Shown here piece after piece: positions 4,050 through 63,700 of a DNA stretch of 64,000 nt; position 1 is the stretch's first letter; each line of letters starts with the position of its first letter. Where the stretch lies: assembly GCA_964016885.1 (NCBI GenBank), contig OZ024743.1:191766001-191830000 (forward strand). The letters are read 5' to 3'. A model generated the notes under the pieces. The model ran no database searches and was not told where the DNA came from. It saw nothing but the letters and a program-made list of their open reading frames with translations. The position numbers and the translations under genes were made by a program. The DNA is from Eledone cirrhosa. Taxonomy: Eukaryota.

Positions 4050-4054
<5 letters not shown>

Positions 4055-7000
4055 AATTAAGTTAAAAATGTACATCTACATATGCATACTGAAATACTAG
4101 TGTGTATATGAATACACACACGTATACATATGTAGGTGTAACAAGTCTTTCACTGGTTGCTTTACTGTGAGCAGCCCAGCTATTCTGTATGTAAACACAC
4201 AGACAAACCGGTTTTTAGAGTCATACTGGTTTTCGGGGGAACACCTTCCCTCTATTCTCCAGAAAGCCAGACAAGGAATATTGAACTAGTTTCGTTGTTG
4301 TTACAACTCATCAGCAATATTTACCTATCTACCGGCCCTTCTGGTGAATTGTAAAAGCACATATCGTTATATGCTTTTTCTATGAAAATTGTTTAAGCGT
4401 CAGTCATACAAAAGTGAGTTACAAACGAAACGAAATTTAATTTCGTTTCGTTATTCGTTTTTATCGTCTCCGCTGAACCGGTGCGTACTCACACTCTATG
4501 CAAATTAGTCTGCCCACTACTACTTTTCATAGAAAAAGCATATAACGATATGTGCTTTTACAATTCTCCAGAAGGGCCGGTAGATAGGTAAATATTGCTG
4601 ATGAGTTGTAACAACAACGAAACTAGTTCAATATTCCTTGTCTGGCTTTCTGGAGAATAGAGGGAAGGTGTTCCCCCGAAAACCAGTATGACTCTAAAAA
4701 CCGGTTTGTCTGTGTGTTTACATACAGAATAGCTGGGCTGCTCACAGTGAAGCAACCAGTGAAAGACTTGTTACACCTACATATGTATACGTGTGTGTAT
4801 TCATATACACACTAGTATTTCAGTATGCATATGTAGATGTACATTTTTAACTTAATTGTTTAAGCGTCAGTCATACAAAAGTGAGTTACAAACGAAACGA
4901 AATTTAATTTCGTTTCGTTATTCGTTTTTATCGTCTCCGCTGAACCGGTGCGTACTCACACTCTATGCAAATTAGTCTGCCCACTACTAATTTTCATAGA
5001 AAAAGCATATAACGATATGTGCTTTTACAATTCTCCAGAAGGGCCGGTAGATAGGTAAATATTGCTGATGAGTTGTAACAACAACGAAACTAGTTCAATA
5101 TTCCTTGTCTGGCTTTCTAGAGAATAGAGGGAAGGTGTTCCCCCGAAAACCAGTATGACTCTAAAAACCGGTTTGTCTGTGTGTTTACATACAGAATAGC
5201 TGGGCTGCTCACAGTAAAGCAACCAGTGAAAGACTTGTTACACCTACATATGTATACGTGTGTGTATTCATATACACACTAGTATTTCAGTATGCATATG
5301 TAGATGTACATTTTTAACTTAATTGTTTAAGCGTCAGTCATACAAAAGTGAGTTACAAACGAAACGAAATTTAATTTCGTTTCGTTATTCGTTTTTATCG
5401 TCTCCGCTGAACCGGTGCGTACTCACACTCTATGCAAATTAGTCTGCCCACTACTAATTTTCATAGAAAAAGCATATAACGATATGTGCTTTTACAATTC
5501 TCCAGAAGGGCCGGTAGATAGGTAAATATTGCTGATGAGTTGTAACAACAACGAAACTAGTTCAATATTCCTTGTCTGGCTTTCTGGAGAATAGAGGCAA
5601 GGTGTTCCCCCGAAAACCAGTATGACTCTAAAAACCGGTTTGTCTGTGTGTTTACATACAGAATAGCTGGGCTGCTCACAGTAAAGCAACCAGTGAAAGA
5701 CTTGTTACACCTACATATGTATACGTGTGTGTATTCATATACACACTAGTATTTCAGTATGCATATGTAGATGTACATTTTTAACTTAATTGTTTAAGCG
5801 TCAGTCATACAAAAGTGAGTTACAAACTAAACGAAATTTAATTTCGTTTCGTTATTCGTTTTTATCGTCTCCGCTGAACCGGTGCGTACTCACACTCTAT
5901 GCAAATTAGTCTGCCCACTACTAATTTTCATAGAAAAAGCATATAACGATATGTGCTTTTACAATTCTCCAGAAGGGCCGGTAGATAGGTAAATATTGCT
6001 GATGAGTTGTAACAACAACGAAACTAGTTCAACATTCCTTGTCTGGCTTTCTAGAGAATAGAGGGAAGGTGTTCCCCCGAAAACCAGTATGACTCTAAAA
6101 ACCGGTTTGTCTGTGTGTTTACATACAGAATAGCTGGGCTGCTCACAGTAAAGCAACCAGTGAAAGACTTGTTACACCTACATATGTATACGTGTGTGTA
6201 TTCATATACACACTAGTATTTCAGTATGCATATGTAGATGTACATTTTTAACTTAATTGTTTAAGCGTCAGTCATACAAAAGTGAGTTACAAACGAAACG
6301 AAATTTAATTTCGTTTCGTTATTCGTTTTTATCGTCTCCGCTGAACCGGTGCGTACTCACACTCTATGCAAATTAGTCTGCCCACTACTAATTTTCATAG
6401 AAAAAGCATATAACGATATGTGCTTTTACAATTCTCCAGAAGGGCCGGTAGATAGGTAAATATTGCTGATGAGTTGTAACAACAACGAAACTAGTTCAAT
6501 ATTCCTTGTCTGGCTTTCTGGAGAATAGAGGGAAGGTGTTCCCCCGAAAACCAGTATGACTCTAAAAACCGGTTTGTCTGTGTGTTTACATACAGAATAG
6601 CTGGGCTGCTCACAGTAAAGCAACCAGTGAAAGACTTGTTACACCTACATATGTATACGTGTGTGTATTCATATACACACTAGTATTTCAGTATGCATAT
6701 TAAGATGTACATTTTTAACTTAATTGTTTAAGCGTCAGTCATACAAAAGTGAGTTACAAACGAAACGAAATTTAATTTCGTTTCGTTATTCGTTTTTATC
6801 GTCTCCGCTGAACCGGTGCGTACTCACACTCTATGCAAATTAGTCTGCCCACTACTAATTTTCATAGAAAAAGCATATAACGATATGTGCTTTTACAATT
6901 CTCCAGAAGGGCCGGTAGATAGGTAAATATTGCTGATGAGTTGTAACAACAACGAAACTAGTTCAATATTCCTTGTCTGGCTTTCTGGAGAATAGAGGGA

Positions 7001-7259
7001 AGGTGTTCCCCCGAAAACCAGTATGACTCTAAAAACCGGTTTGTCTGTGTGTTTACATACAGAATAGCTGGGCTGCTCACAGTAAAGCAACCAGTGAAAG
7101 ACTTGTTACACCTACATATGTATACGTGTGTGTATTCATATACACACTAGTATTTCAGTATGCATATGTAGATGTACATTTTTAACTTAATTGTTTAAGC
7201 GTCAGTCATACAAAAGTGAGTTACAAACGAAACGAAATTTAATTTCGTTTCGTTATTCG

Positions 7260-7266
<7 letters not shown>
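4050..7266 (+). mobile_element. Family A: HHR tandem array (retrozyme-like); 467-bp unit x about 6.2 direct (4387-7266) preceded by an inverted partial unit (4050-4390); flanked by (TA)n
   Basis: Exact 467-bp period, few substitutions between units, one HHR per unit, (TA)n at 4010-4050 and 7265-7324. Confidence 0.9.
4591..4635 (+). ncRNA. Type I minimal hammerhead ribozyme, family A (also at 5058, 5525, 5992, 6459, 6926; inverted copy 4277-4321)
   Basis: AATATTG-CTGATGA-GTTG(taacaa)CAAC-GAAAC-TA-GTT^CAATATT: stem I AATATTG/CAATATT, 4-bp stem II, palindromic AACTAGTT stem III. Confidence 0.88.
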
Positions 7267-9486: not shown

Positions 9487-9532
<46 letters not shown>

Positions 9533-9540
<8 letters not shown>

Positions 9541-9648
9541 CAACAGATTAAAGTTTAATAAATATTTGCTCTACGGTTCTTATATATTTGATATATATTT
9601 ATCCTTATCAAGTCCTCTTTGGATTTTAGTCTTCAAATTTATTATTAT

Positions 9649-9652
<4 letters not shown>
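9533..9652. mobile_element. Mini-insertion of the Naiad-type PLE (inverted 3'-end fragment plus 5' tail) in (TA)n
   Basis: 9533-9557 matches 38126-38150 directly; 9558-9652 is the reverse complement of 38035-38127. Confidence 0.85.
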
Positions 9653-9730
<78 letters not shown>

Positions 9731-9734
<4 letters not shown>

Positions 9735-11462
9735 ATAAATGCTCTGAAATAGCGATATATATGTGAATATAGACATAGAATATTCGAAAATATTCTGTAT
9801 GTTTATAATAAACATTTTGAAGACCTAATCGCTATAGAATAGAATACGTCACGTATTACAATTAGATTCTCGATAAAAGCAAGGGAAGTAATCTACGCGT
9901 TTCATTCTCGTTAGAAATCATCAGGACTACATATCCAGTGCTTTTATCGAGAATGACACAGCTAGAGACTTATAGAATACTTAGCTGTGTACAGGAACTG
10001 GTTTGAAAGAGCGGTTGCCGGTCCGGCAGAAATTAGAAATTGGAATAAATGCTCTGAAATAGCGATATATATGTGAATATAGACATAGAATATTCGAAAA
10101 TATTCTGTATGTTTATAATAAACATTTTGAAGACCTAATCGCTATAGAATAGAATACGTCACGTATTACAATTAGATTCTCGATAAAAGCAAGGGAAGTA
10201 ATCTACGCGTTTCATTCTCGTTAGAAATCATCAGGACTACATATCCAGTGCTTTTATCGAGAATGACACAGCTAGAGACTTATAGTTCCTGTACACAGTT
10301 CCTGTACACAGCTAAGTATTCTATAAGTCTCTAGCTGTGTCATTCTCGATAAAAGCACTGGATATGTAGTCCTGATGATTTCTAACGAGAATGAAACGCG
10401 TAGATTACTTCCCTTGCTTTTATCGAGAATCTAAATGTAATACGTGACGTATTCTATTCTATAGCGATTAGGTCTTCAAAATGTTTATTATAAACATACA
10501 GAATATTTTCGAATATTCTATGTCTATATTCACATATATATCGCTATTTCAGAGCATTTATTCCAATTTCTAATTTCTGCCGGACCGGCAACCGCTCTTT
10601 CAAACCAGTTCCTGTACACAGCTAAGTATTCTATAAGTCTCTAGCTGTGTCATTCTCGATAAAAGCACTGGATATGTAGTCCTGATGATTTCTAACGAGA
10701 ATGAAACGCGTAGATTACTTCCCTTGCTTTTATCGAGAATCTAATTGTAATACGTGACGTATTCTATTCTATAGCGATTAGGTCTTCAAAATGTTTATTA
10801 TAAACATACAGAATATTTTCGAATATTCTATGTCTATATTCACATATATATCGCTATTTCAGAGCATTTATTCCAATTTCTAATTTCTGCCGGACCGGCA
10901 ACCGCTCTTTCAAACCAGTTCCTGTACACAGCTAAGTATTCTATAAGTCTCTAGCTGTGTCATTCTCGATAAAAGCACTGGATATGTAGTCCTGATGATT
11001 TCTAACGAGAATGAAACGCGTAGATTACTTCCCTTGCTTTTATCGAGAATCTAATTGTAATACGTGACGTATTCTATTCTATAGCGATTAGGTCTTCAAA
11101 ATGTTTATTATAAACATACAGAATATTTTCGAATATTCTATGTCTATATTCACATATATATCGCTATTTCAGAGCATTTATTCCAATTTCTAATTTCTGC
11201 CGGACCGGCAACCGCTCTTTCAAACCAGTTCCTGTACACAGCTAAGTATTCTATAAGTCTCTAGCTGTGTCATTCTCGATAAAAGCACTGGATATGTAGT
11301 CCTGATGATTTCTAACGAGAATGAAACGCGTAGATTACTTCCCTTGCTTTTATCGAGAATCTAATTGTAATACGTGACGTATTCTATTCTATAGCGATTA
11401 GGTCTTCAAAATGTTTATTATAAACATACAGAATATTTTCGAATATTCTATGTCTATATTCA
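9731..11462 (+). mobile_element. Family B: HHR tandem array; 310-bp unit, inverted arm 9731-10284 (about 1.8 units) and direct arm 10285-11462 (about 3.8 units); flanked by (TA)n
   Basis: Units start at 10298, 10608, 10918, 11228; near-identical; one HHR each. Confidence 0.9.
10366..10408 (+). ncRNA. Type I minimal hammerhead ribozyme, family B (also 10676, 10986, 11296; inverted 9888-9930 and 10198-10240)
   Basis: GTAGTC-CTGATGA-tTTCT(aacg)AGAAt-GAAAC-GC-GTA^GATTAC; palindromic ACGCGT; outer 16-bp stem ATTCTCGATAAAAGCA/TGCTTTTATCGAGAAT. Confidence 0.9.
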
Positions 11463-12284
11463 TATATATATATATATTTGTGGTAATGTACAAATACTAT
11501 GGAACTTTAGCATACAGACCACTGGATAGCATATAATAAATCTGACATTATTCTTTATGATAAAAATTATGACAGCGTGTTAATTATCAATAAATCAACG
11601 CCACGTTACTATAATTTTGTGCAGAAGCGAGCTGGAAAGTAAAGAGATTACACGGCTCTAGCTGTTGAATGTAAATTATCTGTTGCGTTAAGGAATGTGT
11701 CTATCATTCCATTTATAATTGGTATAAACGGAGTGATAGACAACTGTTTCATGAAGGTCATTAACATTGACAAATTTTTGTATAAAATAAGAGAGATGCG
11801 TGCCAAAAATCACAATACTAGAATCTGTAAATGTTGTCAGGGCATTCTCATAGATTTGTTGTTAATCTTTGACGTTTGTGTTAACCTTGAGCAGTCTTGT
11901 TAAAATTGAATATTTCTATGCTTCTTCGCCAAGATGCACCTAATACTAGTCTTAAAAAGACTCATGATGTATTTCCCAAACCGTGGCGCATAAAAATAAA
12001 AATAAAAATAAACGGAAGTAGAAGGGAAACGGTGAAGGGCGCGACTTTCAGTAGTAAATAAAATATCTGTAAAACTAACATATGTATGAGCAGTGTTCAA
12101 TAGATCGATATCATAATAGCAAAATCTGATATTCATTATAAAACAACAATGTGATAGCCTTCCCTCTATGGATTCGACCTAAGAAGAGATGAGAACTAAA
12201 GTCAAAGGAAGACAAATGACAGAAATAGTTGTGCCAGTAGATATTTTAGTAAAACTAACTAGTTACTTAGCTTTAACTAATAAC

Positions 12285-30548: not shown

Positions 30549-33161
30549 TGTCTGTGTGTGTGTGTCTGTGTCTGTGTGTGTGTGTGTGTATGGCATCGTG
30601 AGGTAAAGACCAGGACGGAGCGAGAAAAAATGGAATAGAGGAAGTGAAATGGCAGTGTAGCGCGCGCAGCCGGAAGGAGTGGTCAAGTCGAAAGAGTGGA
30701 AGAAGAGGGTGTTGACAGCAGGACATGTTTGTGAGAGGGAAGGGAGGAGGTAGTGCCCACAAAACAAAACAAGGAGGGAGAGAGCGATTGTGGCTACTAT
30801 GTGAGTGAGGGTTAGTTGGCTGTGTGTATACAGGCAGGTGTGTGTGGACAGAGGATGAGAGTAGCGTGTATATATGCATGTGTGTATGGAGGCATGTGTT
30901 TGTGTGTGTATAAAGCGTAGTGGTCATGCGAGGAGATATCGTCGGTGTGTGTGTGATAGACGCTGTGTATCGTTTTTTTTAATGGCTACATACACGTATG
31001 TAAGTGAATATACTGGTGTGTTTCAGGGTGTATGTGTGCGTGTGTGTGTTTCAGGGTGTGTGTGTGTGTGTGTTTCAGGGTGTAAGAGTGTGTGTCGTGT
31101 TTCAGGGTGCAAATGTGTGTCTGTGTGTGTGTGTTTCAGGGTGTGTGTGTGTGTGTGTTTCAGGGTGTAAATGTGTGTGTGAGGGCGTAAGTGTGTGTGT
31201 GTGTGTGTTTCAGGATGTAAGTGTGTGTGTGTGTGTGTGTTTCAGGGTGTAAGTGTGTGTGTGTGGTGTGTTTCAGGGTGTAAGTGTGTGTGTGTGTGGT
31301 GTGTGTTTCAGGGTGTAAGTGTGTGTGTGTGTTTCAGGGTGTAAGTGTGTGTGTGTGTGCTGTGTTTCAGGGTATAAGTGTGTGTGTGTGTGTGTGTGTG
31401 GTGTGTTTCAGGGTGTAAGTGCGTGATTGTTTTTGTAGTGTACGGAGGGAAATAACTAAACCAAGGTTGGGGTTCGAGACGTGCAGGGAGGAGTTAGTGA
31501 ATTAGAGGGGGACGGGTGGGAGAGAAAGAGGGGTGTTTGGATCTTTGAAATTAGTGCAGTTAGTGGTAGGTGGGGGTTATTAGTAGGTCAGTGTGGAGGT
31601 GAAGGAATACAGGAAGGTGCGAGTGGGTGGTGATGTGGGGCAGAGGGTAGTGTGTTAGTGAAGGGGTGGGTCAGTGGGTAGACGGTATGATGAGGGCAAA
31701 GGGTGTGTGTACGTTGTTGAGTGTGGATATGCGGAGTAGTGTAGTGGTGGTAGGTGTGGGTGGGAGGTTGAAGACAAGCGGAAGTGGAGTAGGTAGGTTT
31801 GTGAAGTTAGTGGTAGGTAGGGGTGGGCGTGGTCGGTGGTGGATTAGTGGTATCAGTCGTGAGGGGGCTAAAGGAAGAAAGTGTGGGGTTCAAACAGTTG
31901 GTGGTCCATGTCTGAATTCAGAAAATCGTCTGTTGCTCGGCGCTCAGTCGAGCATCTCGGGTTCCGGAGCACGCAATCAGGCTGCTGACGGTCATGTTGC
32001 GAGCGGAATGACCGGCTGAGCAGAAGTGTAGGGCGATGGGGGAACGCGTGCCGAGGCGGATGTCGTGGAGGTGCTCAGCGAACCGATCGGCCAAACGGCG
32101 GCCCGTCTGTCCGACATCAGTCGCACTGCACTGGGTGCAGCGGAGTCCGTAGATGAGGCTGGAGGAGGTGCAGCGAAAGGAGTGCCGGACAAGGAGGGAG
32201 TGGCCGTTGGGCCCCTGGAAGGTAGTGGTGTAAGTGATATGGGGGCATGTGTGGCAGCGGAATTGGGAGCAGGGGAGGGACACGGGGGAGGAAGAGTGGC
32301 TAAGAGGTAGGGAGCTACGGACGAGGAGGTTCCAGTGGTTGCGTGCGTGCTTGAAGGGGGGGGAGGGTTCGAGTCGGAAGACGAGGGATGTGGAGGAGTC
32401 TGACTGGAGGCGACGGAAGGGGCGTAGGAGAGTCCGTTGGGGGTAGGGTGGCAGGGTTGTAGGTGAGAAGGAAAGGCAGATGCTGGGTGTGGGGGCGAGG
32501 GTGTGGGGTGACGGTAGTGGTGCCGTGGACGGCGCAGGCGCGAGTGTAACAGCGTGGATAAGGGAGGAGGGGTAACCTCTCCGGGCGAAATGACGGACCA
32601 GAGAAAGGGTCTGGGTTTCAAAGAAGTTGGTAGTAGAGAATGGAGTGTTTGGTGGAAGTGGGATGGAGGGAGGTAAAATCGAGGTAGGAGTACGAGCAAG
32701 TACGTTTGAAGAAGGCGGAGGTGATGAGTGAGCGGTGGGAGAGGTCAATGGTGACGAAGATGTCCAAGAAGTGGTGGAGATGGAGGTGGTGAGTGAAGTT
32801 GAGGGAGGGATGGAAGGAGCAAAGGAATGAGAGAAAAGAGTCGAGATGCTCCTGGGTGAGAGTCGTGGCACCGATGCAGTCATCAATATAATGCCCGTAT
32901 AGTTCGGGAGTGGGGCTAGTGTATTGGGCAAAAATCTAGGCCTCAATGTGGCCAACGAATAGGTTGGTGTAGTGGGGCCCATTATTGTACCCATGGCTAC
33001 CCCGGTGACTTGCTGATAAAATTTACCCTAGAAGGAGAAGCAGTTGAGGGTGTGAACTAGCTCGGCGAGACGAAGGGGAGTGGAGGTGGAGGGGACGGGG
33101 AGGGACGATGGTCAATGTAGTGTTGGAGGGCGCGTAGGCCGTCAGTGTAGTGGATGGACGG
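30400..33161 (-). mobile_element. Degenerate GC-rich Penelope-like element (RT motifs at about 32850-33060, GIY-YIG to about 31900) with microsatellite-rich 3' region
   Basis: QVTGVAMGTIMGP, HYIDDC, ARRGYP, CSQFRCHTC, LIYGLRCTQC..VGQTGRRLADRFAEH; frameshifts; 5' end abuts TA at 33162. Left boundary uncertain. Confidence 0.85.
31015..31422. repeat. Minisatellite GTTTCAGGGTGT(AA)(GT)n, about 13 units
   Basis: Direct read. Confidence 0.9.
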
Positions 33162-34820: not shown

Positions 34821-34868
<48 letters not shown>

Positions 34869-35864
34869 TAAAATAACGGATTAAAGTTTAAGCAAAGAAT
34901 CGCTGCTTTCACACTTAACGGGATCTTCTGAAACTAACAAAGTCAATCTGTAAACGCAGACCTGGATATTTCAAAAAACGTTGCAACCGGAGGAAGACAG
35001 AAAGACGATACTTTGGTTCGTGGTAACGTTCGCTGGCAAAGAACGGGAAAAAACGAATAATACGTCATTAATAGGAGCGGTGAAAAACAATTACGCGCAA
35101 AGACAGAACCACGTTTATGGTATAAAAGAGGTCGTAGACTAATGTTCTCTTAGGTGGTGCATAGAGACGTTCTCTGGCAATGAACGAAAAAACGAAGATA
35201 ATAAGTCATATGTGGAGCGTAGAGAACAATAGTACGCAAAGACAAAACCACGTAAATGGTATAGCAGAAGTCGTAGACTAAATTCTAACTAGGAGACCAA
35301 ATGAATCTCCGCTACAGAGTTAAGAACAAAGTAAATAAATACAATACAGAAGTAATAGAAACAAATAAATACATACACGCAAACAGATACGTACATACAC
35401 AAGCATACGCAAAACTTTACCATAGGTATACAAAACCACGCACATATAAATATGTGTGTGTGTGTATGCTTGTGTACAAATAAATAAATAATTATATAAA
35501 CGTATATAAGTAAATAAATACGTATATAACAAGCGCACACGCATACCTACATATAAATACACGAATGCTCGGAGACGTAAGTCAACTAAAACAAGAAGTA
35601 CACATATACACACACCCACCATACGTACGAACCTGCATACTCACGCAGACGCAAAACTCCCGTATACACATAGCCAAACCCTAAATACCAGAATATGTAA
35701 AAATTATACGCCATAACAGTCAAATATACGTACGAGAAGGTATACATACCTTCACAAAACATACGGGTTATATATACTTACCTATGCAAATAAGTAAAGG
35801 AATAAACAAACAAATACTTAGCTCCCACATCAAGACGTAAAATATCCACGTATAGATCGTGCTA

Positions 35865-37991
35865 TCAGTTAGGGTATAACGTGGGGCTGTAATACAGGAA
35901 AGTTTTGTGCAATTTATGTTTACAAGCCGAAATTGCCTCAGATTTTTTGTTTAAGATGTGGTCTGTGGCGTAGAGTATTTCCAGGGCCTCAGCGGCGCAG
36001 AGGTCACATGGTCTTTTATTTCCGTTATACGATCTAGCCCTAGCTAGGATCTCCCAGTGTAACTTATATTTGGTGTGGTTGTCTTTTAGACTCCAGATAT
36101 AAGCTGAAAGTGACGTCATATTCCTTCTTAGAGGGTAACGAAAAGAATGGGTATGCATGTAAAGACGCTGCTTGAAACTATTGGCGGTTAACCCTATGTA
36201 GGCCCTACGGGACGTGGGTGTTACAACCTTACATTTGTAGACAATGTTACTAGAGAGGCATTTCCCGGATAGGGGGAAATCAGCCCGATTCCTACAATTA
36301 CAGTTAGTACTAACTACAGGGTTGCACGTGTTCCTACGGCTAGGTAGTTTAGCTAAATTTGAAGCTGTGATGTTATGTGCAAGGTTAGGAGTCGTAGAGT
36401 AAGAGATTTTAATAGTATTTCTATTAAAAATGTTACTATCTTTATGTGTAGGGGGAAAATGTTTCGTAATAAGGGAAAGAAAGATCTTAGCTAATGGTGT
36501 GGCCACCTCCATATTATATGGTGGGTTAAACCAACAAATGCGACGGGATCTATTTCTTCTAGGTCTATTTTCGTACTCTGTATATACTACCTTATCGACA
36601 AATCCACTTCGAGCAAGAGCTTCATTGAAATAAGTGGAATGGTCGTTGAAAATGCGCTCGTTGGTGGAAAGACGGGAAAGCCTCAACGAAACGTTTCTTA
36701 CCAGGTTCTTGGTTATGCTGGCAGGATGGTTGGAATGCTTACTTATGTAATTAAGCGTATCATTCGGCTTTCTATACGGGTAATACAACCCATTCAATAA
36801 ATTGAGGGTAACGTCGAGGTAATTAACGACCGAGAGATTGGCCTCAACCTGTATAGAGAGGTTGAAGCCTTTAAAGAAGGCTGTGAGTTCTTTTCTGAAC
36901 CTGTCGCAAGCACGAGGTCCGCACTTAGTCATGGTCAAAAGACCATCGTCACGGTACAAACCACCGCCTGCGTTGGGGAGTTCGTCCTTGATAGAGAAAA
37001 GAAGGAAAAGGCCAATAAGATCAGTAACCTCCGCAGAGTCACTGGCGCCCATACTCACGTCGAATGGGGTACTATTGGATTTTTTAATCCAAATAGAGTC
37101 GTCGAAATTAATCACCAACTTTCGGGCATTAAGAATGACATCAACTTCAAAATCCTTAACCACTGTGAGTGTTTTAGCGAAATTGATAGCTCTAAGGAGA
37201 AGTGGTAAAGTGATGGAGGAGTAGTAATTGTTGATGTCGAATTGGATAAAACGGCAATGTTCCTTGTTACATATGCCGTTGAACCAATCAATCACCGCGA
37301 AAGAATTGTTCCACAGTGCGAGAGGGGCCAAACTTCTAATTTCAGGTATAATTCTATCAAGAATCGTTTTACTAAGTCTACCTAAATCGGACTTCGTAGG
37401 GTTAATAAGCCGAATAGAGGGGTTGTTCGGAAAATTGGATTTGTGATCCTTCAGGGTAAAGTGGGGAGAGATAGGGTCCAGAGGTTCGGTCCGGTCCAGG
37501 ATGTTGAGATCGGATGTGATTTTAAACCCAGCATCGTTGATTTCATTGATGACGCACCGATTAGTTTTACGGTAATCCTTAGTTACAGCATTATGTAGTA
37601 GTTGATGGTAAGTACTGCGCTCCACTTGATATAGGTTGCCAGTTTTGTCGGAATGGACGTGCACGGCGTTAGAATCCTTAATAGAACGAGTTCTATTCTT
37701 CAGGTCTTGCTGGAAGGAATTGCTCCTATTCCGAAATTTGATATTCCGAATGAGTTCCAAAACATCATTTTCGAAGGGTAGCAATGCTGGGTTCCACGGA
37801 GGGTTATTATAAGTTTTAAATCCAAATTTATCCTGTTTGTTGTCTGCTTTTCGCGGATTATCGAAATAAAAGGCACGCCAACGCAACCTTTTAATGAACG
37901 CGTCTGTTTTCTGTATCAGGAGTTTTAGGTATGTTTTCCTGCTTGGTACGGGTATGTTCTTTGTAGAAATATTCAGATGTTGTTTCTGCAT
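35865..37991 (-). CDS. PLE reverse transcriptase plus C-terminal GIY-YIG endonuclease, 708 aa
   Basis: STKNIPVPS..KRLRWRA N-terminus, DKTGN, RLINP, QFDINNYY, MGASDSAE, LYRDDGL, NYLDV, CNC..PLSGKC, IVYKC..YIGLT, CDLC, NKKSE. Confidence 0.93.
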   Translation of the reverse strand: MQKQHLNISTKNIPVPSRKTYLKLLIQKTDAFIKRLRWRAFYFDNPRKADNKQDKFGFKTYNNPPWNPALLPFENDVLELIRNIKFRNRSNSFQQDLKNRTRSIKDSNAVHVHSDKTGNLYQVERSTYHQLLHNAVTKDYRKTNRCVINEINDAGFKITSDLNILDRTEPLDPISPHFTLKDHKSNFPNNPSIRLINPTKSDLGRLSKTILDRIIPEIRSLAPLALWNNSFAVIDWFNGICNKEHCRFIQFDINNYYSSITLPLLLRAINFAKTLTVVKDFEVDVILNARKLVINFDDSIWIKKSNSTPFDVSMGASDSAEVTDLIGLFLLFSIKDELPNAGGGLYRDDGLLTMTKCGPRACDRFRKELTAFFKGFNLSIQVEANLSVVNYLDVTLNLLNGLYYPYRKPNDTLNYISKHSNHPASITKNLVRNVSLRLSRLSTNERIFNDHSTYFNEALARSGFVDKVVYTEYENRPRRNRSRRICWFNPPYNMEVATPLAKIFLSLITKHFPPTHKDSNIFNRNTIKISYSTTPNLAHNITASNLAKLPSRRNTCNPVVSTNCNCRNRADFPLSGKCLSSNIVYKCKVVTPTSRRAYIGLTANSFKQRLYMHTHSFRYPLRRNMTSLSAYIWSLKDNHTKYKLHWEILARARSYNGNKRPCDLCAAEALEILYATDHILNKKSEAISACKHKLHKTFLYYSPTLYPN

Positions 37992-38144
37992 GATGAATAT
38001 AAGTCAGTAGAGTGCTCAACCGAAGGAGCCAAATAGTAATAATAATAAAATTGAAGACTAAAATCCAAAGAGGGCTCGATAAGGAAAATATATATCAAAT
38101 ATATAAGAACCGTAGAGCAAATATTTATTAAAATAACAGATTAA

Positions 38145-38195
38145 AGTTTAAGCAAAGAATCGCTGCTTTCACCCTTAACGGGATCTTCTGAAACT
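38145..38195 (-). ncRNA. Hammerhead-like motif with variant core in the pLTR (second copy 34885-34935)
   Basis: Minus strand: AGTTT-CAGAAGA-tCCC(gttaa)GGGt-GAAAGCAG(cgattct)TTGCTT^AAACT, with distal CAGATT/AATCTG pairing. Confidence 0.6.
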
Positions 38196-38334
38196 AACAA
38201 AGTCAATCTGTAAACGCAGAACTGGATATTTCAAAAAACGTTGCAACCGGAGGAAGACAGGAAGACGATACTTTGGTTCGTGGTAACGTTCGCTGGCAAA
38301 GAACGGGAAAAAAAAAAATATATATATATATATA

Positions 38335-41946: not shown

Positions 41947-41957
41947 TATATATATAT

Positions 41958-42110
41958 AGTAATAATAATAAATGTGAAGACTAAAATCCAAAGAGGGCTC
42001 GATAAGGATAAATATATATCAAATATATAAGAACCCTAGAGCAAATACAGAAGATCTCGTTAAGGGTGAAAGCAGCGATTCTTTACTTAAACTTTAATAT
42101 GTTATAAATA
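41958..42110. mobile_element. Second mini-insertion of the Naiad-type PLE (tail plus inverted 3' end) in (TA)n
   Basis: 41958-42047 matches 38035-38123; 42048-42110 is the reverse complement of about 38123-38190. Confidence 0.85.
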
Positions 42111-42156
42111 TATATATATATATTTAAAGGAATAGAGGTGTAACACACAAGTTATG

Positions 42157-53570: not shown

Positions 53571-54696
53571 CTTATATATAAATGAAAGTTCTTGATTCTG
53601 TGTATCCACCTAAAACTCAAAAATTATCGATCGGTCTCCCACAAATTTACATATATATATTCACTACATCACGAGACAAATAGTCGTAATAGTTGGTTTA
53701 CTTTACAGAGCTTTGAGCAATAAGGAATCGGACAATACTTGCATAACAGAAGGAGTGGCAATGGCTCTTGGTTGGGGTTTCAGACAAACTCTGGCAGTAA
53801 TTTCTCGGGGGGACCCGAGCAGATCAGGTTAATGCCTGCATGTGTTGGTGAGTTTGCTATCCAGCTACTCAAATTGCAAAATGGACTTCTTGAAAAGGAT
53901 TCCAAAGACCGGATTCCGTTGTTATTTGCTCATATAATTAAACTGGAATAGGAACTGATTAACAGAATATTTCCAAACATTCAGATCAGACAATGTGATC
54001 CCAAATGACTGTGAACGAGTAATCTTAACACTGAAAATTGTTGCTGTGAAAGAAACCAACAGAAAGTTACTGGATATGTTATCAGGAGAGGAAAAATGCT
54101 ACAAATCAGTTGACACAGTCATTTCCCAGGACCAGGTTGTAAACTATCCAACTGAAGATTTGAACAGCCACAAACTGGCAGGAATTCCTACACACACACT
54201 GAAGCTTGAAGCATCGGTTATGCTATTTCGTAATCTAGATCTTCCAACACTTTGCAATGGTACAAGACTCATCATCAAAAATATGATAGCCAATGTCCTA
54301 GAAGACGCAATCATGTCAGGAAAATTTGCTGGTGACAATTATTTCATTCCCAGAATACCTCTGAGGTCAACTGATTTGCCATTTGAATTTCAAAGGCTTC
54401 AATATCCTATCAAATTCAGTTTTGAGAGCAATCATTGAAAGTCTTTGGGTTGAACCTGACAGATCCTCTCTTTTCACGTGGTCAGCTTTATGTTGGTAGA
54501 ACAATGTTGTTTATCCAGAGGATTTAGAATATAAAAGTATCTGAACAAGATAATATCGTAATTCCTACTGCAATGATAATAGACATAGATACTAATTCCT
54601 TAGTCATATAGTTTGTAAGGAATTCTGAAGTCCTAACTTTACTGCATAATGTTACTTTGGGAGGATACGCAGACATCCCCAGGTACCTCTGCTATA
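53571..54696 (+). mobile_element. Internally deleted Helitron carrying a PIF1-like helicase C-terminal fragment (about 53950-54500)
   Basis: MLFRNLDLPTLCNGTRL, FIPRIPL..DLPFEFQRLQYPIK, FSRGQLYV; 5' TATATATAAATGAAAG; 3' CAGGTACCTCTGCTA resembling the other Helitron's end. Confidence 0.8.
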
Positions 54697-56355: not shown

Positions 56356-59300
56356 GGTGACCTTCGTAGGAAATCGTATCATCGTGAGCTCCGCAAAGGT
56401 TTGTTGTTTTCGTTTGTTTAAAATTGCCATTTATGGAAAATTTTTGTTGTTAACTGTTTATAAAGTCACAAAATTTGCTTTCGAAAAAGGACACTCAAAA
56501 AGATTGGGGCCTTGAGCCCAAAATTTAAACTTTTATAATTATAAAACAAAAATTTTCTTTGAAAAAATCATGGACGATCACAGCTACACTAAGCGGCTGA
56601 GAGCCTTCCTGACAAAATAACACCTCACACCAACACCACCATTGTAAATATTGCTACGTTTGCCAACACTAAAAATATAAGCAGTAGCAATAATTTAAAT
56701 TTGTCTCATGCAGACATTGATTTCCCGCCATTACCAATGACTGCAGATGTTGAAGCCGCCACCCACCACCACCACCACAGCGACAACAAAAACAAAAGAA
56801 AAAATAAATTGTCTCGTGACATCGAAATGGATTCACCCAGAATGGATTCTTCCAAACCGAAAACCACTGACGCCACCACCACCACAACTGAAACTAAAAA
56901 TAACAATAAAAAAATAACAATAACAACAACAGCAACAACAACAATGAGAATAACAACAACACCGTGTCGTTTGCCAAAGAAGCCAAAAAATGCGAAACAA
57001 TCCAGGTAACTTAGGAGGAATTAGATAAAGCCAAGAGAATGGTAAAGAAAGATGGGTTCAGGGTCAGCCTCACCAACACCACAAAAGTCACCAAAAAGCG
57101 AAACAGAAACAGACCCACAACAAACGCAAACGAAACAAAACAACCAAAACGATACACACTACACAGCATTAAATTTGAACAACAACCAACTCTTACACTA
57201 CATCCAACACAACACCAGCATCACAGAAAAAGACTACACAACACCCCAAAAGTTCACACCACCTCCACACATATAAATCACTCGCATCACACAGAAAACG
57301 TACATGACACTGAAACAGAAATTCCCCAAAGACATCGGAGGCTTCCGACAAGCACTCTCCAGGAGGATTTATAAGGACATTCTTCCGGAGGAGGCCACAA
57401 GCAGGGAAAAGGATGGAGAAACCATCCTTCCTCTACGAGAAGTACTGGTAAGTGGTCTTTCCCATCTTTTCCACTCCTTTTCAACATGTCCTCACTCAGA
57501 ATATGCAGCATAAATGCGCGTGGCTTGGGGTCGTCATGGAAGCAGGGCCACTTGCTCAACGACCTCAGGTCACTAAACATGGATGTAGTGGCCATCAGCG
57601 AGACCAGAATCTCCGAAGCACGGGCCTTCGCACCGATCTTCGGCGGCTACGATGTGTACGCATCTCCCAGCCGTCCTGGAATTGGGGGGAGAAGTTGCTG
57701 TGCCTTTTCGGTGAGGTTTGGATCTCGCCATACGGGCCATCATGCTGGACCCAGAAGGTAAATTGGTGGTGCTGGACGTGACCAGCGGAGACGGGCAAGC
57801 TTTCAGGCTAGTGGCCGTCTATGCCCCGACAGGAGCAGGGCGGCCTGATTTCTTCCGGCGTCTGGAGACCTTTCTTGGAATGTCCAGATCTTTAGTGTTA
57901 GTGGGCGACTGGAACGGGATCTTAGATACACGCTGGGACTGTGTGGGATCAGCGGATAAGGGAGGAGAGCCTCACCAACCTGCTCAGGCGTTTTGAACTG
58001 TCTGACAGGTACCGATTGGATTTCCCGAATGTGCCAATGTGGACTTGGACAAACCGCATCGGGTCATCCAGATCATATCTAGATAAAGTATTTTGTAGAG
58101 AAATAGATAGGTCTAGCATAGGCTGTCCACAATTCAAGATAGTCAGCTAGATCTGTGTGCTTGACTTAGATAGGCTTCATAGACGAGGACCCGGCTACTG
58201 GAAGCTAAACGCGTCCTTACCAGCGCGCAAAGCCTACAGAGACCGGATTAGAGAACTAGTTAAGCGGGCGTTGAAGGGGGCCATCGTCAACAACAAGTGG
58301 TGGTTTGCTCTGAAAAGAGCAATTAGAATAGAGTCCATCAGGTTTAGTAAGGCTTTAGCAATAGAGAAAAATAGAGCAGAGGGAGAATTAGTTAGAAAAT
58401 TAGACGAGGCGCTTAGCAAAGGCATCGCGACCGACGTACTTGCGGCGAAATTGGCCCTTGACCAATTCTTCAATGCAAAGCACGAAGGCTGCGTTGTCAT
58501 AGCTAGGGTGCGTGCTCTCAGACACGAGATGACGAAAGCCGTTCAATGGGCCCGAGTGTCGGAGGCGCGTCGTGGCAACAAAGCCACGATCCGGTCTTTC
58601 GTGGACCACAGGGCGCATGCTACTCGATCCCGGGCAAATGTGTGAAGCTTTTCAGGGACACTTCGCACAGCTGTTCGGGAGCAGCGGCGGGCCGGATCGA
58701 GGGATGGACTTTAGTGTCTACCTCGACGGACTGCCGCGGCTCTCGGCCACTGAGGCGGAGTGTTGCGAAAAGCCGATACCAGCCGCTGAAGTAAGGGAGG
58801 CAATGACTGGCTGCACAAGGGGTTAATCGCCTGATTTAGATTTTATGCCCTATGAACTTTACGTACAGATGCCAGACTTGTTCGGAGGCCTCTTGGCGGA
58901 CGGCTACTGCAACTGGCAACAGAACGGGAGAATTCCCAGCTCTGTGAGCAGAGGAGCTGTGGCGCTGCTGAGAAAGGATCCGAACAAGGGTGATAACATA
59001 GATAATTTCAGGCCCATAACTCTGCTAAACACAGAGTTCAAGATTTTGGCCAAGGTGCTAGCAAAGAGGTTAGCGCATGTCGTTTGTGGTCTGGTGGGAG
59101 AGGCGCAGACGTGCGCCATTCCTGACAGATCCATCCACGACAACTTCCACCTCATGCGATACATCGTAGAGAGGATAGCTAGGGAACCTGGCACGGGTGG
59201 GACCTTGACCAATTTAGATCAGTCGAAAGCATTCGATAGAGTCGACCATCGTTACCTAGCAGCAGTCCTGAGGGCCGCTGTCTTTGGGCCCGTCTTCAGA

Positions 59301-60742
59301 GGCTGGATCGCTGCCATGCACAGCGACATCTGCTCTGTGGTGAGAGTGAACGGTCACCTTTTGGAACCGTTCAACATCATGCGTTCGGTCCGCGAGGGAT
59401 ATCCCCTCTCGTCCCTCTTGTACGTATTGACTCTCGAGCCATTACTGCACAAACTGGAGACGTTGAGGGATGCAGAAGATCCGTGTCAGCATATGCGGAC
59501 GATGTCACCGTACTGGTGTCGAACGCCAAACACATCGAGGCGATGGGCACTACACTAAGAGAATACGAAGCGGTGACAGGAGCAATGATCAACCAGGAAA
59601 AGTCACATGGGCCTGCAACGCGGCACCTGGAGAGGCATGTCCATGCGGTCCAACAGCGTCGTCGGGCGCTGAACAGACGGACCGGTTAATTTGCTAGGGG
59701 TCTGGTTCGGTCCGGACCTCCAGACGGACAAAAACTGGGACGAGGTGACGAGCAGGGTGGCTTCTCTCACCCAGAAATGGGCGGAGAGGAAGCTATCCCT
59801 GAAAGGTCGAGCGGAGGTGGCTAACGTGTACATCGCGTCTGTCATCTACTACCGCCTGACGTCGTACCTTGTCCTAAGCCTCGCCTGACTGCGCTGGAGC
59901 GTTTGCTCTTTCGCTTTTTGTGGAAGGGACGCGCTCCGATGGTCAGGCGGTCCATCTGCTGTCAACATCCGCTACGTGGAGGGCTGGGCATGCCGTGGCA
60001 TCCCTGGCCTGGCAGTGCTACCGAGGAGCTTTGCCAGTTCCGGATAAACTCTACAGGCATGGAGGTGCCGTCAGCCGGGCATGTCCGAGATGCGCGCAGG
60101 GCGACGAAACCGTCCTGCACGCACTCGTCCAGTGTCCGAGCATTGCTGACTTGTGGGTTTATGTCGAACACCTGCTGTCGCGAGTGGGACGGATCCAGCT
60201 ATCAGCTGAGTCCATCGTGAGGATTGCCCCGCCCTCTTCCTTTAGCCGGGAAGGGCAGGCAGTTTTTATCTGTCTGGTGGCCATGGCGAAGGAGATAGTA
60301 TGGTGGACACGTTTGAAAGGGCTGAAGACGCGCACTTACCTCTTCGGTGATGCCCTGATTAACTTTTTCAAATTTCATTTGAAAAGGAAAATCAGGGTAG
60401 AGAGGGAAGTGCTCTCTTCCCAGCATTTTGTTGAAAGATGGGTGAGAGAAGCAAGTATGGCCCGAGTGAATGGGCCTACTCTGTGTATGTGTCTGTAAAT
60501 TTAAGGTGGAAAACTGGGAGAGGGCACTTGCCCTGGTTGTCAAGATCACTGTGGCCTTTTAATGGGCTTTCTCCACAAATGTCCCTCGGAAGTCTCCCCC
60601 CTATTGGGGAATTTTTCATTGTTTTTTTTATTACATCCTGTTTTTTTTTACACGCAGAAATGCCCATTTGTACCGTCCTGTATTGTCCTGTACTGTCCTT
60701 AATGTCTACTTTATGTAAACCCTTGTGGTTAATAAAGAAAGC
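56356..60742 (+). mobile_element. Tx1/L1-like LINE copy 1 (ORF1 internally deleted; ORF2 APE-RT-CCHC 57486-60498 frameshifted)
   Basis: SINARGL, LVGDWN, RPITLLNTEFKILAK, DQSKAFDRVDH, AYADD, CPRC..ETVLHALVQC; AATAAA then (TTA)n. Confidence 0.92.
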
Positions 60743-60787
60743 ATTATTGTTATTATTAATATTATTATTATTATTATTATTATTATT

Positions 60788-63700
60788 GGCGACCTACGTA
60801 GTAAATCGTATCATCGTGAGCTCCGCAAAGGTTTGTTATTTTCAGTTATTTAAAATTGCCATTCATGGAAATTTTTTATTGTTAACTGTATATAAGTGCA
60901 CATACATTGTTATCTGAAAAGGACACCCAAAAAGATTGGGGCATTGAGCCCAAAATTTAAACTTTTATAATTATCAAAAAAAATTTTCTTTGAAAAATTA
61001 TGGCTGACTCAGAGTCACTCCTTTTTTACAAACTGACACCTCACACCGACACCACCATTGTAAATCTTACTACGTTTACCAACACTAAAAAAATATAAGC
61101 AGTAGCAATATTTTAAATTTGTCTCAGGCAGACATTCATTTCCCGCCATTACCAATGACTGCAGGTGTTAAAGCCGCCACCACCACCACCACCGCGACAA
61201 CCACCCCCACCACCACCACCGCGACAACAGAAACAAAAGAAAAAAATTAATTAACTCGTGATATCGAAATGAATTCAGCCAAAATGAACTCTTCCACACC
61301 GAACACCACTGACGCCACCACCACCACAACTGAAACTAAAATTAATAATAACAAAAATAACGATAACAACAACAGCAACAATGACATTAAGAAAACCATC
61401 CTGAGTTTTGCCAGAGTAGCAAAACAGTGCGAAGCATTTCAGGTAACTCAGGAGGAATTAGAAGAAGCCAAAAAAATGGTAAAGAAAGATGGGTACAGAG
61501 TCAGCCTCATCCCCACACACACACCTAATAAAATGGAGAATCGGCGCCTATGCACCGTGTCTTATCGAACAATTAATATAAAATCGCGCCGAGTGGAACG
61601 GGCATCCGAGTCCCAAATCCAAAAAGCTTTGGGACATGTGTGGGCAAAAAAACCCACATCAGACGTGGGCAGAAGTATGGAACCGTGGAAGTGTTCTTTG
61701 AAACACCACAGGAGGCTAGAGAACACTCCATGGCCCCATTAAGAAGTGACGACTTCACACTCCTCCCAAGCTATTGTGGCCAGAGACTCGTAAAGATCAG
61801 GGTCACCCACGTTCCACCGGCCATCGAAATTCCCTGGCTAATAGCTGCCGTCCTCGCCGGCATCGAAGCCAACACCAAGATAATAGAAATAGCGAAAGAA
61901 AAGCAGGAGAACTGGTCCGGATCTGGGATGGAGCTCCTGATCCAAGCGGACCAAAAAAGCATTAAGGAGATCCCAGAGGTAATAGACCTCACTGACGGCA
62001 ACCACCTCACCGTAATTGTCGAAGGCAGGAGGCCTAGGTGTGTCGTTTGTGGTGAAGGAACCCACCTAAGGGCTTTCTGCCCTCAGGCTAAAAGGATGAG
62101 GCCACCTCTCCTACCCATCCCAGTGACTCAACCATCAACACCACCAGCAGCAGAGATGGCAGCAACAACTGTAGCAGCAACAACAGAAGCAACTGTAACA
62201 GCAACAACCCCAGCAACAGTAGCAAAACCAACACCACCCAACGCGCCAGAACTAGCACCAGCGCCTACACCATCCACCACGCCACAACCAAAACTAACGC
62301 CTGTGGAGGATTTTCCACTCCCCGGCCTATTACAACTGGAGACAGATTGTGACGACGAAGAGTGGGAAACGGTATCAGGAAAAAAGAAAAAATGAAACCA
62401 AAAAAGAAAAATACTCTCTTCCTTCCCCCTCCAAAAACAAAATACAGAGGGAAACAAATAAACTATCAAACAAAAAAGTTAGGACAGACGTACCACCATC
62501 CACACCAGCATCACCAACCCCATCACCCCAAACACCAACACCATCTCCATCATTAACCCCAACACCACCATCAACTACACCACAAAAGTCACCAAAATGC
62601 GAAACAGAAACAAACCCACAACAAACGCAAACAAAACAAAACAACCAAAACGATACACACTACACAGCATTAAATTTGAACAACAAGCAATTATTACACT
62701 ACATCCAACACAACACCAGCATCACAGAAAAAGACTACACAACACCCCAAAATTTCACACCACCTCCACACATAAAAATCACTCGCATCACACAGAAAAC
62801 GTACATGACACTAAAACAAAAATTACCCAAAGACATCGGAGACTTCCGACAAGCACTCTCCAGGAGGATTTATAAGGACATCCTTCTTGAGGAGACCACA
62901 AGCAGTGAAAAGGATGGAGAAACCGTCCTTCCTCTACGAGAAGTAAGGTAAGTGGTCTTTCCCATCTTTTCCACTCCATTTCAACATGACCTCACTCAGA
63001 ATAGGCAGCATAAATGCGCGTGGCTTGGGGTCGTCATGGAAGCAGGGCCACCTGCTCAACGCCCTCAGGTCACTAAACATCGATGTAGTGGCCATCAGCG
63101 AGATCAGAATTTCCGAACCACGGGCCTTCGTACCAATCTTCGGCGGCTACGATGTGTACGCATCTCCCAGCCGTCCGGGATCGGGGGGAGAAGTTGCTGT
63201 GATTTTTCGGAGAGGTTTGGATCTTGCCATACGGGCCATCTTCCTGGACCCAGAAGGTAAGTTGGTGGTGCTGGACGTGACCAGCGGAGACGGGCAAACT
63301 TTCAGGTTAGTGGCCGTCTATGCCCCGACAGGTGCAGAGCGGCCTGATTTCTTCCGGCGTCTGGAGACCTTTCTTGGAACGTTCCGATCTTTAGTGTTAG
63401 TGGGCGACTAGAACGGGATCTTAGATGCACGCTGGGATTGTGTGGGATTAGTGGATAGGGAAGGAGGGTGCAAGAGTCTCACCAACCTGCTCAGGCGTTT
63501 TGAACTGTCTGACAGGTACCGATTGGATTTCCCGAATGTGCCAATGTGGACTTGGACAAATCGCATAGGATCATCCAGATCATATCTAGATAGAGTATTT
63601 TGTAGAGAAATAGATAAGTCTAGCATAGGCTGTCCACAATTCAAGATAGTCAGCTACACGGACCACAAATTCGTGATCTGTGTGCTTGACTTAAATAGGC

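Follow-up and report, generated by a model that had tools for sequence, protein, structure and literature searches.

Three tandem arrays in the window (the whole 64,000-nt stretch of DNA analysed here) pair an inverted arm with direct repeats, and they raise the question of what makes the inverted arms stop where they do. The earlier note had read these stops as the 5' end of a transcript, with an octamer and an initiator-like motif (TCATA) forming a promoter inside the repeat.

Structure and class of the three arrays

The arrays, named A, B and C, lie within TA runs and are built of units of 467, 310 and 466 bp, with GC contents of 0.373, 0.345 and 0.363, respectively. TA-rich runs adjoin all six outer array ends, and the inverted arm stands head-to-head with the direct repeats in 3/3 arrays. 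The inverted arm of A (4050..4390, minus strand) runs from unit 136-140, in the 3' arm of a hairpin, to reverse transcription (RT) start site 1 (unit 8-9) and adjoins (TA)n. Its direct arm (4387..7266, plus strand) begins at unit 1 (site 1), continues for 6.2 units of 467 bp and ends at site 2 (unit 78), followed by (TA)n; the two arms overlap by 4 nt, AATT. The inverted arm of B (9729..10285, minus strand) comprises 1.8 units from unit 24-26, in a hairpin loop, to site 2 (unit 270), and also adjoins (TA)n. The B direct arm (10284..11471, plus strand) opens with a 13-nt duplication, continues with 3.8 units of 310 bp and ends at site 1 (unit 235-244) and (TA)n; it has hammerhead cores at 10372, 10682, 10992 and 11302 and no octamer. 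In array C, the inverted arm (15934..16800, minus strand; 1.9 units of 466 bp) extends from unit 108 (TTTCATA) to site 2 (unit 42) beside a TA-rich run. The C direct arm (16802..17592, plus strand) covers unit 1-43, jumps to 168 and goes on to site 1 (unit 448) and (TA)n. The base reached by the jump, unit position 168, is the one that opens the hammerhead core; a core of this arm lies at 17312.

The 3' ends fall at two fixed sites per insertion, one per arm and 26-70 nt apart (A, 8-9 and 78; C, 448 and 42; B, 235-244 and 270). By alignment, the two sites of C are homologous to those of A and are used the other way round. Two fixed 3' sites per insertion correspond to the one-sided "tail" of Penelope-like elements (PLEs). 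As a side observation, direct copies 2 and 4 of A, and no others, carry an identical G to A change at unit position 266 (5119 and 6053). The change is uncommon across the family, and the pattern suggests a dimer template or later unequal exchange.

A type I hammerhead is present in all intact units. In copy 2 of A (5058..5102, plus strand) it has a 7-bp stem I, CUGAUGA at 5065, a palindromic stem III and a predicted cut before 5096. Our own descriptor of the type I hammerhead gave 15 matches in 64 kb, every one in A, B or C; five of the six direct A units passed it, and the sixth has a change in stem I. In an Rfam search of window bases 1-30000, Hammerhead_HH9 matched the A copies only (38.6 bits, E 1.4e-6, below the gathering score of 52). 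Rfam miRNA matches were rejected as TA-repeat artefacts. Stop-to-stop frames of at least 130 aa were not found in A or B, and frames touching C mostly run through TA repeats.

Tandem hammerhead repeats without an ORF are known as non-LTR retrozymes (PMC7229834, PMC4209133), for which an origin as non-autonomous derivatives of PLEs has been argued (Li et al., 2026, bioRxiv 10.64898/2026.07.22.740005); here and below, comparisons draw on those parts of the cited papers that were available to us. Like these retrozymes (Cervera and de la Pena, 2020, PMC7229834; Li et al., 2026), A, B and C have tandem units that are short and poor in GC (35-37%), with one type I hammerhead per unit and a short palindromic stem III, lack a coding frame and are highly self-paired; retrozymes have been proposed as non-autonomous partners of PLEs. 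The A and C units (466-467 bp) are slightly longer than the 150-450 bp given in one source (PMC7229834) and within the 51-972 bp of another (bioRxiv 10.64898/2026.07.22.740005). Self-cleavage and expression as linear and circular RNA, further marks of retrozymes, would be expected of A, B and C. The available parts of the retrozyme papers describe no inverted arms, two RT start sites or conserved octamer hairpin in the unit.

Inverted truncated arms and microsatellite targets are standard in PLEs (PMC8557442, PMC3846280). With the endonuclease-containing PLEs (PMC8557442, PMC3846280, PMC11167929), A, B and C share an inverted 5'-truncated arm beside direct repeats, overlap at the junction, a tail at one end, microsatellite targets and a hammerhead in the repeat. 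Unlike PLEs, they have no ORF, and the tail is 60-70 nt in A and C compared with the usual 30-40. We are confident that the three arrays represent non-autonomous elements of the Penelope type (non-LTR retrozymes), which a Penelope-like RT/GIY-YIG protein copied into (TA)n. The class is already described, and the units may already stand in published family lists. Pattern scans for relatives gave 117 loci in metagenomes, 0 of them with a downstream hammerhead core or likeness beyond the pattern, 0 and 0 loci in two scans of GTDB genomes, and 1 and 39 loci in scans of viral contigs, none related.

The window is animal DNA with many microsatellites and retroelements, and its short interspersed repeats look, we presume, like those of cephalopods. 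A near-complete PLE lies at 34861-38313 (minus strand). It has a 708-aa frame (35865-37991) with RWR, DKT, YRDD and AYIG motifs, flanked within (TA)n by 193-bp direct repeats (38121-38313 and 34861-35053, 98% alike); DKT and the shortness of the element suggest the Hydra clade. A hammerhead-like core, with CAGAAGA replacing CUGANGA, lies in the repeat. Two miniature head-to-head insertions of this element (9528-9654 and 41956-42115) consist of the repeat end and a tail of about 90 nt only; the first is one TA run away from array B. In these, the inverted arm ends at site 1 and the direct arm runs from site 1 to site 2, which is a minimal picture of two-site priming. Their arms stop at the first base of the hammerhead-like core and in a 5-nt window holding the cut site predicted by hand; RNAfold did not reproduce the hand fold of this ribozyme. 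Two unrelated cDNA stops, at 16844 and 42048, both coincide with C3, the base that opens a hammerhead core, and not with the cut site.

A 5'-truncated PLE fragment (19890-21264, minus strand) between TA runs has a GIY-YIG-like end (YIGET...R..EH) and, in its 3' region, a hammerhead core (CTGAAGA...GAAA). A decayed frame at 31918-33027 (minus strand), also with a GIY-YIG-like end, is probably another PLE. A Pfam search of the PLE-like frames, 31918-33027 included, matched 0/3. Two further regions (58151-63411 and 53959-54438, both plus strand) hold broken LINE pieces, with matches to RVT_1 at E 4.9e-18 and to an endonuclease at E 2.8e-4, below the cut-off, and a Pif1 helicase 2B fragment (E 4.3e-10), possibly derived from a Helitron. 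Between A, B or C and the ends of two PLE copies in the window we found matches of 16-28 nt, which is chance level. The autonomous PLE of the window was rejected as a shown partner of A, B or C, as these ends gave no significant match.

A conserved inverted repeat and the stops of the inverted arms

The octamer-containing module singled out in the earlier note is present at the positions given there. In family A, TATGCAAATTAG starts at 4964 and TAATTTTCATA at 4988 (to 4998), and in family C the two halves start at 17223 and 17248 (to 17258). The claimed spacing of 32-33 nt agrees with the distance from the T preceding the octamer to the A of TCATA (32 nt in A, 33 nt in C). What had been overlooked is the module's inverted-repeat structure: TATGCAAATTA is the reverse complement of TAATTTTCATA except for one base (a C-U mismatch), giving a hairpin, and the claimed initiator is the hairpin's 3' arm. 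In copy 2 of A (4964..4998, plus strand), the octamer lies in the 5' arm of the imperfect repeat and TAATTTTCATA forms the 3' arm; the predicted stem has 14 bp with the one mismatch, and the loop has 9 nt. The family C module (17223..17258, plus strand) has the same arms and mismatch with a spacer of 14 nt, and its stem is lengthened by bases differing from those of A (GGCT/AGCC). Another complete copy (16328..16363, minus strand) lies within the C inverted arm. Octamers in A occur at 4498, 4965, 5432, 5899, 6366 and 6833, one per 467-nt unit.

Homology between families A and C extends over the full unit (53% identity), and the two module halves (12 and 11 nt) are their longest exact matches; one further match of 11 nt lies at non-homologous positions. 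The units have four 11-mers in common, which 6/2000 shuffles achieved. Counted per 30 positions, identities reach 21-23 in the module and 22 in the hammerhead core, compared with 6-20 in other regions; the A/C conservation of the module thus equals that of the ribozyme core. The octamer as such is not enriched in the 64-kb window (11 matches vs. 6.0 expected), and eight of the matches are copies of families A and C. The other three (24361, 29327, 35784) lack the second arm. In family B, ATGCAAAT was not found within one mismatch on either strand. A literature search for the octamer in PLE or retrozyme units found none; one match uses the word for RNA multimers.

Compared with shuffles, the folding energy of the module stem gave a z of -6.1 in A and of -1.9 in C, where 8/200 shuffles were equally good. 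In the predicted fold of the whole circular unit, the module bases other than the mismatch pair with probabilities of 0.77-1.0. Hairpins abound throughout the A and C units, and the module is one among several in a common branched fold. This fold is predicted and unproven, because the A/C alignment of the module stem gives no compensatory change: 10/11 pairs are identical and one is G-C/G-U.

Arms had been said to begin near TTTCATA at 4390 and 16800, and the inverted arms do end there, at unit 136 (to 140) in A and at unit 108 in C. The A stop is ambiguous over 136-140 through the AATT common to both arms. The C stop corresponds by alignment to A position 139 and is the same place within this ambiguity, a coincidence with a chance of about 1-3% (uniform stops; post hoc; two events). 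We measured the stops from four anchors (sites 1 and 2, the core and the cut site). The distances are 58-64 (A), 66-68 (C) and 64-67 nt (B) from site 2; 127-132, 126 and 90-101 nt from site 1; and 72-76, 60 and 49-51 nt from the hammerhead core. Site 2 is the tightest anchor of the four. Array B is the sole independent test of this spacing, with a chance of about 3.5%, or about 14% over four anchors; the evidence consists of three insertions, and the anchors were picked after the fact.

Each of the three inverted arms ends in a hairpin, 58-68 nt 3' of the second RT start. The A and C stops are in the 3' arm of the module stem; array B has a hairpin of its own, with the stop in its loop. In B and C, the inverted arm had already crossed the same hairpin once when it stopped. 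At the C junction (TATGAAA followed by TGAGTGAG), the 8 nt equally fit the antisense strand of C 70-77, which lies upstream of the octamer. From its bases, the junction may hold one extra base, or it may be a skip over the hairpin to C 70-77; a skip would exclude a start within the module for that event.

Reads from 4 of 23 listed runs aligned to one A unit: 930 contigs (X1), 3432 and 2346 reads (two RAD runs) and 11 contigs (X7). Family A is abundant in one public run and also occurs, module included, under a second organism label. Among 40 of the 133 variants listed, two fall in 4961-5028, at 1.1% and 4.6% of X1 depth; A to G is the commonest change among read variants. None of the five joints listed for reads on the A unit is at the module (0/5). 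RAD read ends at 4854, 4904/4906, 4973 and 4989/4992 were rejected as evidence of stops because all are on AATT, and we take them to be restriction cuts. In a read subfamily, a short insertion at 4953-4955 creates TGACTCA by the octamer and, by hand folding, lengthens a long-range GTGAG/CTCAC stem.

What halts the inverted arms

An internal promoter is plausible for this class. The inference of one from the arm starts holds in so far as A and C share their stop and the class offers precedents; it does not hold for TCATA as the start or for B as an example. TCATA fits the initiator consensus YYANWYY at 5/7 positions in both A and C. The arms reach past its A in the upstream direction, by 3-7 nt in A and by 4 nt in C; this A therefore cannot be +1, as cDNA could not copy there. 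On these two grounds, the A of TCATA was rejected as the start. Nor does CCAGTTC at 10284 in B provide a parallel, since it belongs to a direct arm, not an inverted one. The first 13 nt of the B direct arm are the duplication; the bases before 10284 belong to the inverted arm, so that the "cc" had to be inferred from inner copies. The B inverted arm starts at unit 24-26, i.e., 24-26 nt past CCAGTTC. With the other kind of arm and no octamer in B, CCAGTTC was rejected as support for a promoter. The octamer is exact in A and C and, within one mismatch, missing from B, one of the families cited for a promoter of octamer plus initiator. The arms of the window's second PLE family, that of the miniature insertions, stop at ribozyme features, which argues that arm ends need not mark a transcription start.

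We favour, tentatively and at somewhat less than even confidence, a reading of the module as a hairpin in the RNA, or a roadblock bound by protein, at which the second reverse transcriptase would halt. A single tandem or circular RNA would serve both nicked target strands as template, with each strand priming at one of the two RT start sites. In this RNA, the module would be a conserved hairpin 33-72 nt 3' of site 2, in the RNA region gripped by the element protein, with the octamer as the 5' arm of its stem and TCATA in the 3' arm. The second reverse transcriptase would halt inside the hairpin or on meeting the bound protein, and the cDNAs would be joined through short microhomology, AATT for A and AG for B. 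Beyond the hairpin and the stop positions themselves, binding of the protein and stalling of the enzyme are what we infer. The purified Anolis PLE protein produces the tail from two RT start sites, and it starts reverse transcription at 111-118 and requires RNA to +172, about 54-61 nt further (PMC11167929). The stop distance is close to this RNA need, which argues for the roadblock.

Several observations on the module itself speak for a hairpin. It folds alike in A and C, the inward extension of the stem uses different bases in the two families, and both listed module variants are A to G changes opposite U, one of which breaks the octamer. The roadblock also gains from B, which stops at a like distance from site 2 with neither common sequence nor octamer. 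The stops of the second PLE family and the C jump fall on ribozyme features, so that RNA features besides a start site do end arms. Against the roadblock, the B and C arms crossed the hairpin once earlier, the C hairpin is weak alone (z -1.9), and there are only three events with post hoc anchors. Invariant module arms with a variable loop would suit a DNA-binding protein at least as well. In a minimal element that begins at the internal start site and extends no further than the binding region, a transcription start would lie at an equal distance.

A corrected promoter is the next candidate, which we consider rather unlikely. The start of transcription would be the A in YTAATTT (position 4989 for family A), which lies 24 nt past the first base of the octamer; the octamer on the top strand and ATGAAAAT on the bottom strand would form an inverted pair of POU-like sites, and the inverted arm would be reverse transcriptase run-off at the 5' end of a multimeric transcript. 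YTAATTT lies 7 nt upstream of TCATA and fits YYANWYY at 7/7 positions in A and C, but the motif is common (6, 10 and 7 per unit of A, 310-nt B and C; once per 100 nt in the window). The A arm reaches the A of YTAATTT exactly, and the C arm ends 3 nt short of it. The invariant module arms with their varying spacer and the few read variants in 4961-5028 (among the 40 of 133 listed) also suit a promoter, as does the B direct arm, which breaks off at (C)AGTTCC on two occasions, as though the template ended there. However, the octamer-less B stops at a like distance from site 2, and in one of the two parses of the C junction the template extends past the module. An octamer at -24 would overlap the usual TATA/TFIID position, which weighs against this start. 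A read subfamily with TGACTCA directly upstream of the octamer (173 and 134 reads) favours it; TGACTCA here is presumably an AP-1 site.

The octamer of snRNA-type promoters lies about 200 bp upstream of the start, unlike that of A and C, which is 25-30 bp from the proposed start. The promoter of newt satellite 2, we assume, contains an octamer. Newt satellite 2, which is reported to use an snRNA-type Pol II promoter of its own (cited in PMC2220036), resembles A, B and C as a hammerhead tandem repeat of about 330 bp. It is a precedent for the corrected promoter together with the Penelope pLTR (PMC2377424) and the rotifer pLTRs, which have TATA plus Inr-like motifs (PMC3846280). Internal promoters and terminal palindromes are already described for the Penelope class. 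Penelope of Drosophila virilis has an internal promoter in its pLTR, with promoter and start within the repeat and upstream of the hammerhead, as proposed for A and C (PMC2377424). That promoter is TATA-less, combines an Inr with a downstream element and was tested with reporters, and the available part of the paper describes no octamer (PMC2377424). The Inr first proposed for A and C, by contrast, fails the consensus, and their promoter is a proposal from sequence.

A reading that combines RNA and DNA roles seems unlikely to us. The inverted retrozyme insertions would be the footprint of a Penelope-like RNP, and the 35-bp palindrome would be both a DNA promoter and an RNA mobilisation signal. 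The second reverse transcriptase would stop at the conserved, protein-held hairpin, about 60-66 nt 3' of site 2, and in A and C the hairpin would double as an inverted pair of POU-type DNA sites.

We regard coincidence or repair bias as improbable. The stops would then be ordinary 5' truncations fixed by microhomology (AATT, AG), and the module would be conserved for other reasons. The A stop is at the 4-nt AATT overlap and the B stop at a 2-nt overlap, but the C stop has no microhomology to the sense arm. The stop position is common to two events only, 2/7 of the 5' stops in A-C are at the module, and the two short inverted arms of the second PLE family start 40 nt apart. The A/C match, at 1-3% by chance, and the place of B in the same distance class count against coincidence. 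Very doubtful is a DNA palindrome other than a promoter (a cruciform or dimer site for the element endonuclease or a host factor, or fold-back priming): the module arms are invariant, and rotifer Penelope elements have palindromes at pLTR 5' ends and inverted junctions, read as self-priming (PMC3846280), yet the junctions here are not palindromic fold-backs of the module, since the direct arm begins away from the mirror position (in A, at site 1).

Implications for retrozyme copying

Work on the mobilisation of retrozymes has been called for (bioRxiv 10.64898/2026.07.22.740005), and the sole purified PLE protein has been mapped only to a 172-nt binding region (PMC11167929). The arrays show the marks of PLE insertion (inversion, tail and TA target) directly on retrozymes. 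The 35-nt conserved element at the cDNA arm stops offers a concrete target, in a high-copy family, for the study of retrozyme transcription and PLE copying. The hairpin and its spacing rule are a testable lead, not a discovery, on how retrozymes are copied or transcribed.
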